In this document: piece after piece, positions 133-31,927 of the stretch
How the letters are laid out: each line of letters begins with the position of its first letter
How positions within the stretch are numbered: the first letter of the stretch is position 1
NCBI GenBank assembly: GCA_018302765.1
Contig: JAGVZG010000008.1
Location: 1-42,501 of the forward strand
Source of the DNA: Candidatus Woesearchaeota archaeon
GTDB taxonomy: Archaea; Nanobdellota; Nanobdellia; SCGC-AAA011-G17; GW2011-AR18
Length of the DNA stretch: 42,501 nt
Direction: 5' to 3'
Position numbers and translations under genes: made by a program
Notes under the pieces: model-generated
The model's input: only the letters and a program-made list of their open reading frames with translations
Told to the model about the DNA's origin: nothing
The model's database searches: none

Positions 133-1710
133 TCAGAACCCATACAAAGTACACTGTTCAGCCCCTAAAAATTCTCCGTCAGGAACAAATGCACTCATCT
201 TTAAAGCTATTACTGTACCAGGTGCGTGTTCTGATATTGGAAGATCAAAGCCTTTTTCTATCCATGTGCCTTCACAGAAACGTACAAAGTCTATAGCTTT
301 TCTAAAACATCTAAAATCACCACTAGGATCCCACCTTCCATAATGAACTCTTAAATAATAACTTGTCATGTCTTCAGGTATTTCAAAATAGAGATAGGAT
401 TTATCTGCTATAAAACCAATTATAGTTTCTGGGTCTGTTAATGTTGCAGGATCCACTTCACGCTTACTGCTGTCCGGTGTTATAATATTAGCAATTAAAG
501 CTCCATCCAGGCCGCATAACCAAGATAAATCTGATCCAGGTTCTGTTCTTGCTTCTAAAACTTCAGAAGAAAGAGCATTTAATTGTGCTTGAGTTGATGC
601 TATACGTACTCTTACAATCCAATTACTTAAACCAAGATCAGGAATAGGATCTAGGTCATTGACTATTAATAATTTAGATTTACCTGTGGGCGAGGGGAAT
701 AAAACAACAGGATCTGTATTTGGATCTACTATTTCTTCTAGAGGAGGTTCTTCCGGTGGTTCTGTCTCTTCTTCAGTTGGTTCTTCTGGTTCATCTTCTG
801 TTCCACCTAAAATTTCCCGAATTAAATCATTAATATCCCTAGCTTCTATATCTTCACAAGTACCTAAGAGTATAATACGGCCGCCATGAAGATTACAAAA
901 TTGTCCTTCACCACAACTACTGTTTTGTAAGCATATTTTATTAGTTTCTTCTTCACTACTAGATTCATCTTCTCTAATTACATATTCTTCAAGACTTTTA
1001 CAAACTTTTTCAGTACTACCACTAAGAGGCGCACAAACATAACCTTCAGGGCAATCTTCAGTATTTTCACAAATAGTACTTTCATCTTCAGCAGCTTCTT
1101 CTATTGATTCTTCTGCTTCCTCAAAAAATTCTCTCCATCTTTCCATTGTAGAATCCTCATCTTCATCTTCTCTATTTGATGATTGAGAAGCCCTAACATA
1201 TTTTTTCACACAGTCCAAGGCACTTCCAGTACATGAATCCTCTGAGGAGATCATAGCATGAGTATAAGTTGGCTCAACTTTTTTTGGCGTAAAAGATTTT
1301 AGTAAAAATGGAACCATAGAAAACTTCATATTTTTTAAAATACCGACGCCATTTAATTTTATTTTTTTCTTTTCAATTGCTTGAATAAAAGAATTTATTG
1401 GATCTTCTGATGAAATTAAATTTAACAATGCTTGTTTTTCTGCATATATATTTAGTGTGGGATTATTTATCTCACTATATTCAATGTTTATTATTTTATT
1501 ATTTTTAGTTACAAGACTTACTTTTAATTTTTCTTTTCCTTCTACATGAAGCACAATTCTTTCATTACCAACAAAAAAATTAAAATATTCTGGGAGGTCT
1601 TTTCCTATTAATTCATTTTGAGGTAAATTTGAATACTCTTCTATGCTAAATACAAATGGTAAAGAAAACATTAAGATAATTAAAAATAGAAGCAAACTCT
1701 TTTTTTTCAT
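133..1710 (-). CDS. Secreted multidomain protein: signal peptide, possible SCP2-like domain, Cys-rich repeats, Pro/Glu linker, unknown C-terminal domain
   Basis: N-terminal KKK plus hydrophobic stretch; PTLNIYAEKQALLNL...FIQAIEKKKIKLNG resembles the SCP2 fold pattern; CENTEDCPEGYVC and CLQNSSCGEGQFC repeats; EEPEEPTEEETEPPEEPP linker. Confidence 0.6.
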   Translation of the reverse strand: MKKKSLLLFLIILMFSLPFVFSIEEYSNLPQNELIGKDLPEYFNFFVGNERIVLHVEGKEKLKVSLVTKNNKIINIEYSEINNPTLNIYAEKQALLNLISSEDPINSFIQAIEKKKIKLNGVGILKNMKFSMVPFLLKSFTPKKVEPTYTHAMISSEDSCTGSALDCVKKYVRASQSSNREDEDEDSTMERWREFFEEAEESIEEAAEDESTICENTEDCPEGYVCAPLSGSTEKVCKSLEEYVIREDESSSEEETNKICLQNSSCGEGQFCNLHGGRIILLGTCEDIEARDINDLIREILGGTEDEPEEPTEEETEPPEEPPLEEIVDPNTDPVVLFPSPTGKSKLLIVNDLDPIPDLGLSNWIVRVRIASTQAQLNALSSEVLEARTEPGSDLSWLCGLDGALIANIITPDSSKREVDPATLTDPETIIGFIADKSYLYFEIPEDMTSYYLRVHYGRWDPSGDFRCFRKAIDFVRFCEGTWIEKGFDLPISEHAPGTVIALKMSAFVPDGEFLGAEQCTLYGF

Positions 1711-14382: not shown

Positions 14383-15639
14383 ATGGTGAAAATATTTGTT
14401 ATTCTAGATGGTATTGGTGATAAATCTTGTAAAGTATTAGATGGTGCAACTCCTCTAGAAGCTGCAAAAACTAAGAATTTAGATTATTTCGCTTCTAAAA
14501 GCAATGGAGGTTATGTTTATACAGTTAACGAACAAATTGCTCCTGAAAGTGATGAGGCAATTCTAGCATTATTAGGCTATGATCCTCATAAATATTATTA
14601 CGGAAGAGGTCCTTTGGAAGCCTATGGTGCAGGAATGAAATTCAAAGATGGTTATTTAGCACTAAGAACAAATTTTTCAACAGTTAAAGATGGAAAACTG
14701 ATTGATAGGAGGGTTGGCAGAAGTTTAACAACAAGAGAATCTAGAGAATTAGCAAAAGAGATCAATGAAAAAGTAAAATTAGATGTTCCATTTGAATTCA
14801 AAGCTACAGTAGGACACAGAGGAGTTTTAATCTTTAAAGGAGATTTCTCAGATAATATTAGTAACGTAGATCCTGCTTATAAGAAAGTGGGTAGATTTGG
14901 GGTTGCTATGGCTGGGAATTTAGATAGATTACAAGAATGTAAGCCTTTAGATCCAGATAAAAAAACAAAATTATCTGCAAATTTAGTTAATGAGTTTGTT
15001 AAAAAAAGTTATGAAGTACTAAATAAAGATTTAATAAATGAAAAAAGAAATAAAAAATATTTACTTGCAGCAAATATAATAGTTCCAAGAGATGCAGGAA
15101 TTATATTACCAGAATTACCAAAGATGAAAGGTTGGGGTGCAGTAGTTTCAATGCCTTTAGAATTAGGAATAACTAAACTAGCTGGGATGGGTGTTTTAAA
15201 GTTTGATTATCCAGAAATGAAATCAACAAATGTTTATGATCATTTATTCAAAGGTTTAAAGAAAACAATAGACGAAAGTATTAAAGCAATAAAAGAAAGA
15301 AAATATGATAAATATTTTATCCATTTTAAAGAAATAGATATTCCAGGCCATGATAACAAACCTTTGGAAAAAAAGAAAATGATTGAAATTATAGATAAGA
15401 GATTTTTTAAATTTTTAAGAAAAAAAGTAGATGATTTAGAATTAGTTGTAACAGGAGATCATTCTAGCCCGTGTGAATTAAATGCACATTCTGCAGATCC
15501 AGTTCCTTTAATTCATTATAATCCTAAAATACAAAAAAATGATGATGTTCAGAGATTTACAGAGCATGAATGCATAGAAAATGGTTCTTATGGTAAGTTA
15601 ATGGGAAAAAACATTTTGAAAACTTTTGGGTTTATTTAA
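14383..15639 (+). CDS. apgM: 2,3-bisphosphoglycerate-independent phosphoglycerate mutase (archaeal type)
   Basis: ILDGIGD, TPLEAAKT, PESDEAILALLGYDP, GRGPLEA, HFKEIDIPGHD, TGDHSSP, HSADPVP. Confidence 0.93.
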   Translation: MVKIFVILDGIGDKSCKVLDGATPLEAAKTKNLDYFASKSNGGYVYTVNEQIAPESDEAILALLGYDPHKYYYGRGPLEAYGAGMKFKDGYLALRTNFSTVKDGKLIDRRVGRSLTTRESRELAKEINEKVKLDVPFEFKATVGHRGVLIFKGDFSDNISNVDPAYKKVGRFGVAMAGNLDRLQECKPLDPDKKTKLSANLVNEFVKKSYEVLNKDLINEKRNKKYLLAANIIVPRDAGIILPELPKMKGWGAVVSMPLELGITKLAGMGVLKFDYPEMKSTNVYDHLFKGLKKTIDESIKAIKERKYDKYFIHFKEIDIPGHDNKPLEKKKMIEIIDKRFFKFLRKKVDDLELVVTGDHSSPCELNAHSADPVPLIHYNPKIQKNDDVQRFTEHECIENGSYGKLMGKNILKTFGFI

Positions 15640-15696
15640 TTACTATTAAGTAACAACAATAGAAACATTTATAAATTCCAACTAATATCTAAATGC

Positions 15697-16449
15697 ATGA
15701 AAGCTGAATTTGAAGGTAGACTACTAATTGAAGTACCTAAAGATACTCCTAAAATAGGTTTTCTAGAAGGAGATTTTGGAAGAGAATTTCTAGCAGAATA
15801 TAATGGAAGAGCAAGTAAATATGGAAATAATTCTAGTTTAGGAGTATTAAGTATTCAAGATGGTTTAGTAAAAGGTTCTAATCCTTTTACAGTTGTTCTA
15901 GCTAATGAAGTATTAGCTAAAGAAAAATTAAGAACTGCAACACAAGCAGATCTTGAAAAAGCATTGAAATTAAGAGTTTTAGAATTAAGAGGAACTTATG
16001 AAGATACAGGTTTAGTTTTAAGAAGTGAAGGAAATCCAAATAGTTATCTTGCAAGAGACCTAACAAAACAATTAAGAGCAAGAAATATAAAGTTTGAATA
16101 TCCAGTTTTACTCAATTTAACAGACTTATCATTAAAAGTGGACCAAGATTCAGATTATGGTTTAGCATTTAATTTAAAAGATGAAGCAGTTCCAGTTTAC
16201 GTTCCAGTTTTAAATAGTCTTAATGGTTCTAGATTTAATTTTTCTGATGTAAATGAAGCTACAGGATTGCCTCAGCAATTGAAAAAAGAAGGCGAAAGAT
16301 ACTTATTTACAAGAAATTCTGGCCTGTCTAGGTTATACTTGGACGGGGACCTGAATTTGGACTCGTACAATGATCTATTTGATAGCTCGAATTCTGGCGG
16401 TCGGATCGTCGTCGTAAGTGGCTTAGCCACGCAAAAATTTTCTGAGTAA
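15697..16449 (+). CDS. Probable DGR variable-protein family member (C-type lectin-fold candidate)
   Basis: C-terminus GLSRLYLDGDLNLDSYNDLFDSSNSGGRIVVVSGLATQKF with alternating fixed and NNC/NNT codons, GC jump and 3' hairpin; paralogue at 31191-31927. Confidence 0.6.
   Translation: MKAEFEGRLLIEVPKDTPKIGFLEGDFGREFLAEYNGRASKYGNNSSLGVLSIQDGLVKGSNPFTVVLANEVLAKEKLRTATQADLEKALKLRVLELRGTYEDTGLVLRSEGNPNSYLARDLTKQLRARNIKFEYPVLLNLTDLSLKVDQDSDYGLAFNLKDEAVPVYVPVLNSLNGSRFNFSDVNEATGLPQQLKKEGERYLFTRNSGLSRLYLDGDLNLDSYNDLFDSSNSGGRIVVVSGLATQKFSE
16321..16430 (+). other. DGR variable-region-like segment with 3' hairpin GTGGC-TTA-GCCAC (16418-16430)
   Basis: Hand count 55/110 GC (50%) versus ~30% in a mid-gene sample; AAC/AAT-derivable codons TAC, GAC, GAC, GAC, TAC, AGC, TCT, GGC; perfect 5-bp stem with 3-nt loop. 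Confidence 0.55.
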
Positions 16450-19592: not shown

Positions 19593-20839
19593 AATTCACT
19601 CAAGCTTTTTTGTTTTTTAATGTAGTTATTTGGCTTAATTTCCTCTTTGCCACTTAAAATTATTTCACCATATACTCCATCATAGCCTGGTTTAATTTTT
19701 AATTTATTTTCTCTGTTTAAAATTATAACCTGCGCTAGCTTTTCATCAATAACTTTTTTCAGATCATCAAAAGAAGCATTCAATAAAATACTGTATTCAT
19801 TTTGGAAATTATTTATTGATAAATTGTAAGTATCCCAAACTTTCTTTGAATTTAATTGTTTGATTTCATAAACAGCAGCTATCAATTCTGTTAAAGGAAT
19901 AACTTCATAAAATTTTGGAACGTTGATTGGTTCTTTTCTGTCTGCCAATTGTTCTATTCTATGAGCAACACCTATTGTTAAAGGAGTTTTGCACACAGGA
20001 CATATATTATTATGTTTTTTAGTTTCATTGGGTTCAAAAGTAATACCGCAAGCCCTATGCCCATCAATATGGTACTTTCCATAAGCAGGGTTTGTTTCTA
20101 TTGTACCAGCAAGACCTTCACCAGTTCTAATAGCATTTATTATTAATTTATAATCTAATTTTTTTATGTCAAAAATCGTTGCTTCCCTTCCAAGTCTCCA
20201 TGGATGAGAACTATGAGGATCTGAGAAAGAAACCAAATTATATTTATCTAATTTAGATATTCTTCTGTTCATTAATGGATCACTACTTATACCAGTTTCC
20301 AATGCATGAATATATTTAGATTTTTCTTCAAAACATTCTTCTACAGAATCATAGCCAGATTTACTTCCAAATATAGACATCCAAGAAGTCCATACATGAG
20401 CCGGGATAACTTCTATGCCGGGACTTATTGATTTTAACATTTCTAAAAATTCAATACTGCTCATACCAAAAATAGGCCTTCCATCGTAATCTATTCTGCC
20501 TCTTTTTAGTAATTCTGAAGTAAATTGTTCAACAATCTCTTTATTTGGAAACAAGACAACATGATGAATTCTTCTGCCTTTTCCGTTATGGGTATAAGCT
20601 AAAGATATTTCTGTTTGCCATATAAAAGGGAATTTATTTTTTGTCCATAAAACCCCATTTTCATCTTCAGTTAATTTAGAAGTTATCTCTTTAAACCATA
20701 AAGGATGCTGTGCATCACCAGTACCTAAAATATTTAATCCTTTAATCCTTGCATTTCTCTCTAGATCTTCAATAGTTGTAGTTTTGCTGCATGCCTGTGC
20801 ATACCTTCCATGTATATGAAAATCACCTATAAAAGACAT
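19589..20839 (-). CDS. PHP-domain nuclease, endonuclease Q / TIGR00375 family
   Basis: DFHIHGRYAQACS, GTGD, PAHVWT, ETGISSD, SFSDPHS, GKYHIDGHRAC, CPVCK, IKPGYDGVYG. Confidence 0.9.
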   Translation of the reverse strand: MSFIGDFHIHGRYAQACSKTTTIEDLERNARIKGLNILGTGDAQHPLWFKEITSKLTEDENGVLWTKNKFPFIWQTEISLAYTHNGKGRRIHHVVLFPNKEIVEQFTSELLKRGRIDYDGRPIFGMSSIEFLEMLKSISPGIEVIPAHVWTSWMSIFGSKSGYDSVEECFEEKSKYIHALETGISSDPLMNRRISKLDKYNLVSFSDPHSSHPWRLGREATIFDIKKLDYKLIINAIRTGEGLAGTIETNPAYGKYHIDGHRACGITFEPNETKKHNNICPVCKTPLTIGVAHRIEQLADRKEPINVPKFYEVIPLTELIAAVYEIKQLNSKKVWDTYNLSINNFQNEYSILLNASFDDLKKVIDEKLAQVIILNRENKLKIKPGYDGVYGEIILSGKEEIKPNNYIKKQKSLSEF

Positions 20840-28646: not shown

Positions 28647-30611
28647 ATGCAGAATAGAAAATTACTCATTCTTTTCTTATTATTTATATTAATAGTAATT
28701 GGTGGTTGCACTTCTAAACAAGAATCTTCACCTGAAAAACCAGTACAGCAGCGAGAAACCGTGCAACAACCTGAAGCAGAAGATATTATGCAAAGAAAAC
28801 AACCTATGCAGTCTCAACAGTCTTGGCAACCTAAAGGTATTGCAATAGAAGGAACATATGCAGATGCTGAAATTGTAGAACTTGAGGATGGCGCTTACAG
28901 AATATATTACTCCATTGAGCCAGAAGTTCCAGGAAATAAATTAGAAATTTTTTCTTCAATTTCTGCAGATGGGATAAATTGGAAAAATGAGGAAGGAATA
29001 ATAAAAGAGTTTGCAACTTTTCCTGATATAGTAAAGCTTCCAGATGGGAGGTTTAGAATGTATTTCCAAAATGCTGGTGTGATAAAAAGTGCAACGTCCC
29101 ATGACGGCTTAAACTGGGTGGATGATCCAGGTGTTAGGATTGATAAACATGAATCAGGATTTAAATTAGAAGATGTAGGTGCTCAAAGCACAGTTCAATT
29201 AGATGACGGCACTTACATTATGGTTTATCGTGGGACTATCAGTGAACCTTATCAAATTGCTGAGAAAATTTCAAATAAAGACACGCATGTTTATTTTTGG
29301 GCGACTTCCAAAGACGGTTTGATCTTTGAAAAGAAAGGATTGGCCATTGACTCAAGAAATGATGTCTTACTTGGAGCAGCTGATGGTGCGGAGTGGGTGA
29401 AATGGGATCAGATTGCAGGGCAAGCTGAATTAAGAGTTTACTTTTGGAGTTATGCCGGTGTTTATCATGTGGTTTATCAGGATGGCATTTTTTCCGAGCC
29501 GGTTTTTGACTTTACAAACAATCAAGACAAAATGGCCAAATTCTCGCCTAATCCGCCTGGCGATCCAACGTTAACAAAAATCAATGGCAAGTGGTTTATG
29601 TATTACGGACAGCATACGAAAGGAATTTATTATGCGACTTTAGAGCAGCAGCAAGAGCTTTCCCAAACTATGCAATCGGGTGAAAAGCTAAGCATACCGC
29701 CTTCTATAGAAAACAGCTGTATTGGGTTTAAGATTGGTGGACCAAATAAAACAGCTACAATAAATATGATCGGAGCTGGTTGGGTAACATTCATGTGGCC
29801 TCATTTCACGTGGGGACGCATAGAAAAGGAGCCAGGCATTTTTGATTTCAGCGAGATGGACAATATCGTCAAGACTGCGCAGGAAAACAACGTTGCGACT
29901 CTTGCAGAGCTACAGCCCTTCGCAGACTGGGACCAAGCATGGGATAAGAATTGTAAGGCAAAAGAAAATAGTTATTTGTGCAAGCCAAAAGACATGCAAG
30001 CATACAAGGTATTTGTTTCTAAAACTGTAGAAAGATATGACGGTGACGGCGAGAGCGACATGCCTGGTTTAAAAATTCCTATAAAATATTGGCAAATAAT
30101 AAATGAGCCAGACATAAAGGAAGATCCTTATGTAATATTCTTCGTTGGAAATGAAAAAGATTACTTTGAAGTTCTGAAAGAGAGCTACCAAACAATAAAA
30201 CAAGTGTGTGCAGACTGCAAAGTATTGCATGGTGCAGCAGCAGGCGTTAAATTAAACTTGCTTTCATTTTGGGACAATTTTTTTAAATTAGGCGGTGCGG
30301 ATTATTTTGACATAGCAAATATACACTATGTCGGTATAGATATTTCAACTGGAAAAACTGTAAATGTAGGAGATTTGTCAACCCTAAATACTAAACCATT
30401 TAAGGACCTGCTTGATAAACATAAAATCAAAAAGCCTATTTGGGTAACTGAAGCAGTACTCAAAAGTTCAAGTGCAAAGTCATCATTGCAAGGTGCCTTG
30501 TCAGCAGGAGCATCTAAAGTTTTCTTTGTTGGGTTTGGTATTGATGAGTCAGAATCTGCTAGTAGATACTCAGCAGACTATAAGGAAATAACACAGTTGT
30601 GCCTAAAATAA
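28647..30611 (+). CDS. Lipoprotein with beta-propeller glycoside-hydrolase-like domain fused to clan GH-A TIM barrel
   Basis: Lipobox IGGC; repeated blades DAEIVELEDGAYRIYY / PDIVKLPDGRFRMYF / STVQLDDGTYIMVY; WGRIEKEPGIFDF, WQIINEPD (acid/base) and PIWVTE (nucleophile). Confidence 0.75.
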   Translation: MQNRKLLILFLLFILIVIGGCTSKQESSPEKPVQQRETVQQPEAEDIMQRKQPMQSQQSWQPKGIAIEGTYADAEIVELEDGAYRIYYSIEPEVPGNKLEIFSSISADGINWKNEEGIIKEFATFPDIVKLPDGRFRMYFQNAGVIKSATSHDGLNWVDDPGVRIDKHESGFKLEDVGAQSTVQLDDGTYIMVYRGTISEPYQIAEKISNKDTHVYFWATSKDGLIFEKKGLAIDSRNDVLLGAADGAEWVKWDQIAGQAELRVYFWSYAGVYHVVYQDGIFSEPVFDFTNNQDKMAKFSPNPPGDPTLTKINGKWFMYYGQHTKGIYYATLEQQQELSQTMQSGEKLSIPPSIENSCIGFKIGGPNKTATINMIGAGWVTFMWPHFTWGRIEKEPGIFDFSEMDNIVKTAQENNVATLAELQPFADWDQAWDKNCKAKENSYLCKPKDMQAYKVFVSKTVERYDGDGESDMPGLKIPIKYWQIINEPDIKEDPYVIFFVGNEKDYFEVLKESYQTIKQVCADCKVLHGAAAGVKLNLLSFWDNFFKLGGADYFDIANIHYVGIDISTGKTVNVGDLSTLNTKPFKDLLDKHKIKKPIWVTEAVLKSSSAKSSLQGALSAGASKVFFVGFGIDESESASRYSADYKEITQLCLK

Positions 30612-31190: not shown

Positions 31191-31927
31191 ATGAAATCTA
31201 AATTCAAAGGTAAACTGTTAGTAAACCTGCCCAAACATAATCCAAATATAGATATATTAAGGGGGAATTTTGGAAGAGAATTTCTAGCAGAATATAATGG
31301 AAGGGTGAGAGATAAATATAGAAACAATTCTATTTTAAGAGTTTTAAGTGAATCCAATGGTTTAGTAAAAGGTTCTAATTCTTTTGCAGTTGTTTTAGCT
31401 AATGAAATATTGGCTCAAGAAGGATTAAGAACTGCAACACAAGCAGATCTTGAATTAATATTAAGATATAGACCAGATTTAAAATTAAGAGAAAATTATG
31501 AAGATATAGGATTAGTTTTAAGAAGTGAGGGGATCCAAATAGTTATCTTGCAAGAGATTTAACAAAACAACTAAGAGGAAGAAATCAAAGGCTTGAATAC
31601 CCTGTTTTAATTAATTTGGTAGATCTTGAATTAAAAATAGATAAAGATTCAAATTATGGGTTAGCATTTAATTTAAAAGACAAAGCAGTTCCAATTTATG
31701 CTCCAGTTTTAAATGGTATTTTTGGTAGTTGTAGGTTTGATTCTTATAATATAGACGAATCTACAGGGTTGCCAAGAACATTAGAGAAAGGAAGTAGATA
31801 TTTATACACAAGAAATTTTGGTTTATCTAGGGTGTGCTTGCTCAAACTGAATCTGAAGTCAGACAATGACGAATTGGACAGCTCAAGGGTTGAGGGAAGA
31901 ATTATAGTAGTAAGTAAGGAGTACTAA
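31191..31927 (+). pseudogene. Frameshifted paralogue of the DGR variable-protein-like gene at 15697-16449
   Basis: Two ORFs align end to end with the intact copy; one base is missing in the G4 run at 31529-31532. Restoring it gives DPNSYLARDLTKQLRG, matching NPNSYLARDLTKQLRA. Confidence 0.85.

Follow-up and report, generated by a model that had tools for sequence, protein, structure and literature searches.

Diversity-generating retroelements (DGRs) work by a mechanism that is established for these elements generally, in which misincorporation is specific to the adenines of a template (TR) and the resulting cDNA replaces a variable region (VR). Among the systems closest to the one considered here are the DGRs of Nanoarchaeota and their variable protein AvpA (Paul et al. 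2015, PMC4372165; Handa et al. 2016, PMC5006420; PDB 5IOO). Nanoarchaeal DGRs carry hairpins with "highly constrained GRA trinucleotide loops" inside the target genes (PMC4372165), and orphan VRs lacking an RT have already been reported in Nanoarchaeota as "fossils or remotely diversified" (PMC4372165, PMC5006420). Roux et al. 2021 state that their own method is unable to detect remote targets (PMC8144416). Here we describe an archaeal gene whose last codons form such an orphan VR.

The gene, its setting and its variable tract

The window, that is the whole stretch of 42,501 nucleotides analysed, is contig C28 of host assembly G000, an archaeal MAG of 1.02 Mb in 28 contigs with ~30% GC. The target gene (Table 1) is flanked by an apgM-type phosphoglycerate mutase gene and GINS51. 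In G011, apgM lies directly next to GINS51, and in G017 the two are separated by ~400 nt that hold no variable protein gene; the target gene is a lineage-specific insertion in G000. Pfam searches gave no match for the target protein (E ≤ 1), for either half of a broken paralogue in the same window or for the neighbouring 191-aa ORF. A total of 191 homologues of the target protein were found, all unnamed or annotated as "hypothetical", in MAGs labelled Nanoarchaeota or Pacearchaeota; the metagenome homologues came from the Hainich aquifer and other groundwater sources. No N-terminal hydrophobic segment was visible in the target protein, which we infer to be a cytoplasmic ligand binder. The putative promoter travels with the gene, as the same motif is present upstream of a paralogue on contig C20 and next to a gene-less VR tail in G001 (Table 1). 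Elsewhere in the window, the 654-aa ORF at 28647-30611 has a hydrophobic leader at its N-terminus and an unusually GC-rich part (50-56 G+C per 110 nt between 29300 and 29890, the genome having 30% GC); it may encode a horizontally acquired secreted protein.

Table 1. Features of the target locus and of related loci. Coordinates without a contig name refer to the window.
Feature	Location	Strand	Remarks
Putative promoter-proximal motif AAGTAACAACAATAGAAAC with TATA-like TTTATAAA	15648..15675	+	22-29 nt upstream of ATG
Target gene ORF	15697..16449	+	250 aa; predicted single C-type-lectin-fold domain with inserts
Variable region (VR) proper	16321..16407	+	stretch matching the TRs of homologous cassettes (G043, G032 VR/TR pairs)
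VR scaffold pattern			CTGTCTAGGTTNTACTTGNNCNGGNNCCTGAAT; N = variable columns
IMH-like element ATCGTCGTCGTAAG	16405..16418	+	encodes invariant last beta-strand (I-V-V-V-S)
Target-site hairpin	16418..16430	+	GTGGC 16418-22, TTA 16423-25, GCCAC 16426-30
Conserved 3' tail GCAAAAATTTTCTGAGTAA (QKFSE*)	16431..16449	+	identical in C28, C20 and G001
Third, decayed paralogue	31191..31927	+	ORFs of 123 and 103 aa; VR remnant ~31817-31915
Gene-less tail of G001	L006:1501-1647 = G001:C27:1757-1903		abuts promoter motif (17/18 identical)
Gene-less tail of G011	L007:1501-1640 = G011:C22:7109-7248		retains out-of-frame ATGAAA start
Cassette of G043	G043:C3		gene, VR, TR 462 nt downstream, RT
Cassette of G032	G032:C1		gene, VR, TR 428 nt downstream, inside 5' end of RT

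A preliminary description of this DNA had reported a jump in GC at the 3' end of the gene, and our counts agree: positions 16321-16430 hold exactly 55 G+C in 110 nt, against a window mean of 33.1 (SD 6.6) per 110 nt, and a value of 55 is attained by only 0.17% of all such stretches in the genome. The VR proper comprises residues 209-237, in which scaffold codons alternate with AAY-derived codons. This alternation had also been described, and it was recovered in the comparison with the C20 copy, from which 11 codons differ at positions 1-2 while the third base is fixed. The accompanying list of variable codons has to be shortened, as two of its entries are probably scaffold: the codon of Tyr214 (the first TAC) is TAC in both foreign TRs, and that of Ser233 (TCT) does not change between the two G000 copies and G001. 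The tract ends as described in GTCGTCGTAAG at 16408-16418, followed by the hairpin GTGGC-TTA-GCCAC.

The IMH is nearly identical in the VRs of the same family (family A) in relatives, where it reads GTAGTCGTCGTAAG in G043, and the TRs of relatives have GCTCAGATAAT (IMH*) in its place. The VRs share a common end, GT(A/C)GTCGT(A/C)GTAAGT followed by the hairpin, whereas the TRs have GCTCAGATAATATGGCTAGGA there, which constitutes the IMH/IMH* distinction. The hairpin stem covaries across homologues (GTGGC/GCCAC, GTGCC/GGCAC, GATGCC/GGCATC), and since the compensatory changes swap Gly and Ala codons, selection acts on nucleic-acid structure and not on the protein. In all eight hairpin-bearing homologues outside the host's family (8/8) the loop is GAA, in line with the published GRA rule that the preliminary description had mentioned (PMC4372165). 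Within the host's family the loop is GTA in C20, G001 and G011, and TTA only in the C28 copy. Both G000 copies have a hairpin change of their own, at loop base 16423 in C28 and at the stem base matching 16421 in C20 (an A.C mismatch). Homology between the C28 and C20 copies stops at the stop codon, and the downstream sequence is unrelated.

Homologous cassettes, paralogues and the predicted fold

Seven independent, homologous loci carry a TR adjoining the gene, two in genomes of the same order (G043 and G032) and five on metagenome contigs (L024, L025, L027, L030 and L040). In five of the seven (G043, G032, L025, L030 and L040), every VR/TR mismatch falls at a TR adenine. The counts of mismatches at TR adenines on the metagenome contigs were 12/12 for L025, 14/14 for L030, 11/11 for L040, 11/12 for L027 and 14/21 for L024. 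Six of the seven loci, among them four of the five metagenome contigs, also have an adjacent DGR RT; in L040 the contig stops within the TR. The motif TTAATRGGCTAYA is conserved immediately 5' of the TR in G043, G032 and G004 (sites at L021:2557-2576, on the minus strand of L022 and at L043:~1575-1590, minus strand), and it may be part of a 5' structured element of the DGR RNA. The G004 TR has an extra A-rich segment after AACTCGAAAT, as does a TR on contig C26 of G000.

A whole-genome search of G000 returned, on the minus strand of contig C20 (20088-20840), a paralogue of 250 aa that is intact; its VR lies at 20130-20216, and its tail is 82% identical to that of the window gene. The two copies differ at 16 of the 26 columns that have A in both foreign TRs (those of G043 and G032), against 5 of the 66 other columns (Fisher p = 1.7e-7), so that the variable positions of G000 can be predicted from TRs in other genomes. 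By codon position, the 24 differences in the VR are distributed 10/11/3, compared to 42/29/41 in the rest of the gene. Nei-Gojobori estimates for the same pair were dN 0.36 and dS 0.10 (dN/dS ~3.6) in VR codons 209-236, against dN 0.29 and dS 0.58 in the adjacent codons 131-208.

The C20 copy derives from a segmental duplication of the window locus, from ~15577 up to the stop codon, as it still includes the promoter motif and the final ~60 nt of apgM (C20:20841-20960 versus window 15577-15696). The two copies resemble each other in a mosaic pattern, and a block at 15850-16090 with 96-100% identity (dS 0.08) points to gene conversion. Chimeras of C28 and C20 occur in public assemblies (P0123, P0125, P0127, P0128 and L023). 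The third paralogue, inside the window, changes frame near 31517-31538 and contains a single in-frame TGA; it has drifted towards AT, one codon is deleted, the scaffold columns have diverged, and the IMH motif and hairpin are absent from it. The preliminary description had relied on this copy as differing mainly at the alternating positions. The counts did not sustain that (scaffold columns 21/65 versus TR-adenine columns 13/24, p = 0.085), and because the copy is broken, AT-drifted and changed at scaffold columns too, its use as a comparator was only partly right. The informative comparator is the C20 copy, outside the window.

Gene-less family-A VR tails of ~150 nt were observed in intergenic positions in two other genera (G001 and G011; Table 1). 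Both begin at the equivalent of codon 196-197. They were considered as ectopic cDNA insertions or former TRs, and this was set aside, as the promoter motif beside the G001 tail and the ATGAAA retained in G011 are more simply accounted for by internal deletion; the tails look like internal-deletion remnants. The end of C23 and the start of C12 (C12:1-100) in G000 are the orthologous flanks of the G011 tail, which indicates that the same intergenic slot (FlaI-like ATPase / membrane protein) holds different VR families in two genera. Both C12 and C26 (C26:1-90) start inside VRs of the C26 type.

The target protein was modelled with AlphaFold2 from a 66-sequence alignment (pLDDT 92, pTM 0.88), and the IMH-encoded last strand corresponds to E238-241 in the model. 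Foldseek had been proposed as a check against the AvpA structure; run against the PDB it was weak by itself, with no match at E ≤ 0.001, and C-type lectins and DGR variable proteins topped its list. [quoted passage not shown] TaqVP (PDB 5VF4) was aligned at Z 7.1 over 176-177 residues (rmsd 6.5-6.8 Å, 11-12% identity) and AvpA (PDB 5IOO) at Z 5.3-5.7 over 148/209 residues (rmsd 4.3 Å, 7-9% identity), the latter tied with ordinary CTLDs (Z 5-6, rmsd ~3.2). FGE-like domains scored Z ~5 and TvpA Z 4.7. The structural matches cover residues ~13-246. From VIA-align and the consistency of CLec folds among the matches, on which the fold call rests, the model shows the whole target protein as one predicted CLec domain with inserts. 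The CLec fold anticipated in the preliminary description is thus upheld at the level of the model, with TaqVP, AvpA and TvpA all in the top-50 list. At the sequence level, an hmmsearch with the 66-member profile against all PDB chain sequences (E ≤ 10) did not match 5IOO, and its only PDB matches were spurious ones to cystatins. The target copy is without the ~45-aa post-VR helical extension found in G043, G032 and many homologues of 280-295 aa.

Template, reverse transcriptases and the present state of the locus

The preliminary description had seen no RT or TR in the window, and RVT_1 matches in G000 were indeed confined to contigs C26, C10 and C5. It had further suggested a genome-wide BLASTN for a TR differing only at adenines and lying near an RT; DGR RTs do exist elsewhere in the genome, but no adenine-only matching TR was present in G000. 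BLAST with the VR, with the foreign TRs and with a pseudo-TR (the VR with A at every variable column) found no family-A TR in G000, scans of G000 for the IMH* motif and the TR-upstream motif found none either, and no partial TR was detected at contig ends or elsewhere in the assembly. The pseudo-TR gave only chance-level short matches in five close relatives of the same family (G001, G002, G011, G017 and G005). Among 27 genomes of the host's family, the G043 TR matched only a related, non-cognate TR in G004:C14. The exact scaffold pattern had 0 matches in GTDB representatives and IMG/VR, collections in which records of the host genome itself may be missing, and a scan of G000 for AAY-dense windows of 30 codons returned noise in this 30% GC genome. 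As G000 is fragmented, absence of a TR from the assembly does not prove its absence from the organism.

The C26 RT (C26:527-1594; L003:527-1597) is the only full-length DGR RT in G000. It has GNLTSQ and YVDD motifs and an in-frame TGA at codon 49 (ELKQL*NELK), which could be a sequencing or population variant. The TR of this contig (~361-470) aligns to C26:3-55, C24:7811-7879 and C11:929-996 at 79-87%, and gave no alignment to 16321-16407. The C10 RT (L004:979-1939) is of DGR type, lacks the first ~150 residues and immediately follows a MoxR-like ATPase gene that bears an intein; the RT on C5 belongs to another type. Neither the C26 nor the C10 RT is linked to a family-A TR. The C10 RT was considered as a remnant of the cognate DGR and rejected, given that its intact relative, in G001:C14, comes with a cis target and with a different TR of its own (RMLYLGNNDNNGLNG...). 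That locus (L018:11-2757) is a third DGR type, with a 219-aa cis target, a TR encoding RMLYLGNNDNNGLNGNNNLNNNSRLLG and an RT in two overlapping ORFs (an apparent frameshift) with a long C-terminal extension.

Public protein sequences were used as a proxy for population diversity, in which consensus assemblies hide minority alleles. Two clusters at 90% identity contained 10 distinct sequences with only C28-type or C20-type VRs. The two exact G000 sequences were present on at least 24 and at least 19 contigs, and the remaining variation in the 10 sequences consisted of paralogue chimerism and, outside the VR, two point changes. Among shorter partial proteins covering residues 131-250 there was one distant match and no VR variant. 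Contig L023 was discarded as evidence of VR variation, since it is chimeric, assembled from C10, C20 and C28. Both the C28 and the C20 VR were assembled inside long contigs.

Before the state of the locus can be discussed, two readings that would detach it from a family-A DGR have to be considered. One is that the tract is an ordinary fast-evolving surface loop, rich in Asp, Asn, Ser and Gly, in which positive selection on point mutations drove the paralogues apart. In its favour, the two genes are divergent in a mosaic pattern along their whole length, down to ~50% identity just upstream of the VR in an ungapped comparison, and A-G transitions are the commonest substitution anyway. Such a loop would not account for third codon positions that stay fixed while positions 1-2 vary, nor for variable columns that coincide with TR adenines from other genomes, homologues that sit in canonical VR-TR-RT cassettes, and an IMH and covarying hairpin conserved at the DNA level; we regard this reading as exceedingly improbable. 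Taken together, the sequence comparisons qualify 16321-16407 as a genuine DGR-written VR, and the claim of a DGR variable region with an IMH-like element and hairpin at the C-terminal end stands on the homologous cassettes and the A-column match. The other reading is that the DGR on C26 also diversifies this VR. The two VR families do have a 5' edge (CTGTC..TAGGTT) and a 3' tail (CGCAAAAATTTT) in common, yet the C26 TR has no alignment to 16321-16407, the scaffold codons differ throughout and the RT contains the in-frame TGA, which leaves it effectively refuted and only very slightly more credible than the surface loop.

What then matters is whether this VR is still being rewritten. With its template absent from the assembly, the C28 VR is most likely a frozen allele, and we consider it probable, at moderate confidence, that it is a relic whose cognate template has been lost. 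The last ~30 codons of the target gene were written by a DGR whose cognate template is absent in G000: an RT would have copied the TR RNA, misincorporating opposite adenines, and the cDNA would have replaced the VR, guided by the IMH and the hairpin. In the absence of that template, the C28 gene and its C20 duplicate would hold two different, now fixed, VR alleles; the third copy has decayed, and diversification would have stopped. Of the two options that the preliminary description had offered, the probable remote target is not supported as it stands, as there was no cognate TR in the assembly or in the close relatives searched, and "recently frozen" fits better with the invariant VR alleles and the off-consensus loop. 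The competing reading is that C28 and C20 are live remote targets, rewritten in trans by a cognate TR-RT cassette, either of the organism itself or of a mobile element sharing its cell, that escaped assembly or binning. Several observations speak for it and against a frozen locus. Contigs C26 and C12 begin inside VRs of the C26-type family, so DGR loci do break the G000 assembly, and a TR-RT cassette on a short contig could have dropped out of the assembly or of the bin. In addition, the dS between the C28 and C20 copies is only ~0.1 over scaffold and tail (0.10 for the VR scaffold versus 0.58 in the flanks), and the gene-less tails of G001 and G011 are GC-rich with scaffold, IMH and hairpin intact, from which it follows that writing continued until recently in the host's family; refreshing by cDNA would make such scaffold-perfect non-coding tails easier to explain. 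The IMH and stem are intact in C28, the GTA loop common to three family members suggests that loops other than GRA may have worked in the host's lineage, and remote targets are documented for other DGRs (PMC5758913). Set against these are the lack of even a partial TR at contig ends or elsewhere in G000, the lack of a TR in the five relatives of the same family, VR alleles that are invariant in 10/10 public variants, a TTA loop that is off consensus and unique to the C28 copy, and damage to both DGR-type RTs of the assembly. On balance we hold a live target to be possible and the less probable of the two. A broader version, in which family-A VRs are still rewritten in trans by a cassette that escapes assembly or binning or is extrachromosomal, uses GTA/TTA loops and keeps the gene-less tails scaffold-perfect, seems to us quite doubtful; if it were true, DGR homing would maintain "dead" target sites independently of the protein that they formerly encoded.

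Comparison with known systems

DPANN DGRs, CLec targets, in-gene GRA hairpins, multiple or remote targets and RT-less "fossil" VRs have all been published (PMC4372165, PMC5006420, PMC5758913). The C28 gene adds one more target family and a well-documented orphan to these, but no new mechanism, and knowledge of how DGRs work is unchanged by it. The archaeal DGR repertoire gains an unannotated target family with a predicted CLec fold, no Pfam entry and ~190 homologues. If the template has indeed been lost, the locus also offers a natural example of what follows, with two paralogues holding different fixed alleles, a third decayed, and relatives with internally deleted tails. The covarying set of hairpins, with GAA, GTA and TTA loops, could be used to test which archaeal target-site features are needed for retrohoming.

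AvpA resembles the target family in its DPANN host, in being a whole protein made of one CLec-fold domain with inserts (PMC5006420), as the target protein is predicted to be, in a short VR (~27-30 codons) with ~11-12 AAY-derived positions, and, going by the model, in an IMH that encodes the invariant last beta-strand. The hairpin lies within the coding sequence in both, with a GRA loop in the target's homologues outside the host's family, and there is no evident signal peptide. The differences are that the 66-member profile found no sequence homology between the two, the structural resemblance being one of predicted fold only, and that AvpA has a ~45-aa post-VR helical extension, which the C28 copy is without. 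The TTA loop of C28 likewise departs from the GRA loop of nanoarchaeal DGRs, and its IMH, GTCGTCGTAAG, from the TGGGGT motif described for DUSEL4.

The DGRs of groundwater CPR and DPANN organisms, as described in the survey cited as ref. 23 in Wu et al. 2018 (PMC5758913) and in Roux et al. 2021 (PMC8144416), share with this locus the groundwater habitat, small genomes, highly diverse cassettes and unannotated target genes. The remote targets of the Treponema denticola DGR and other Lineage-4 DGRs (Wu et al. 2018, PMC5758913) are similar in that the VR genes lie far from the RT among unrelated chromosomal genes, with several paralogous targets per genome; in those genomes every remote VR has a TR with which it agrees everywhere except at adenines, whereas G000 has none. 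TaqVP of Thermus aquaticus (PDB 5VF4, PMC6328139) is bacterial, 381 aa long and distant from the target protein at the identity and rmsd given above, but it is a CLec-fold DGR variable protein and the best structural match to the model.
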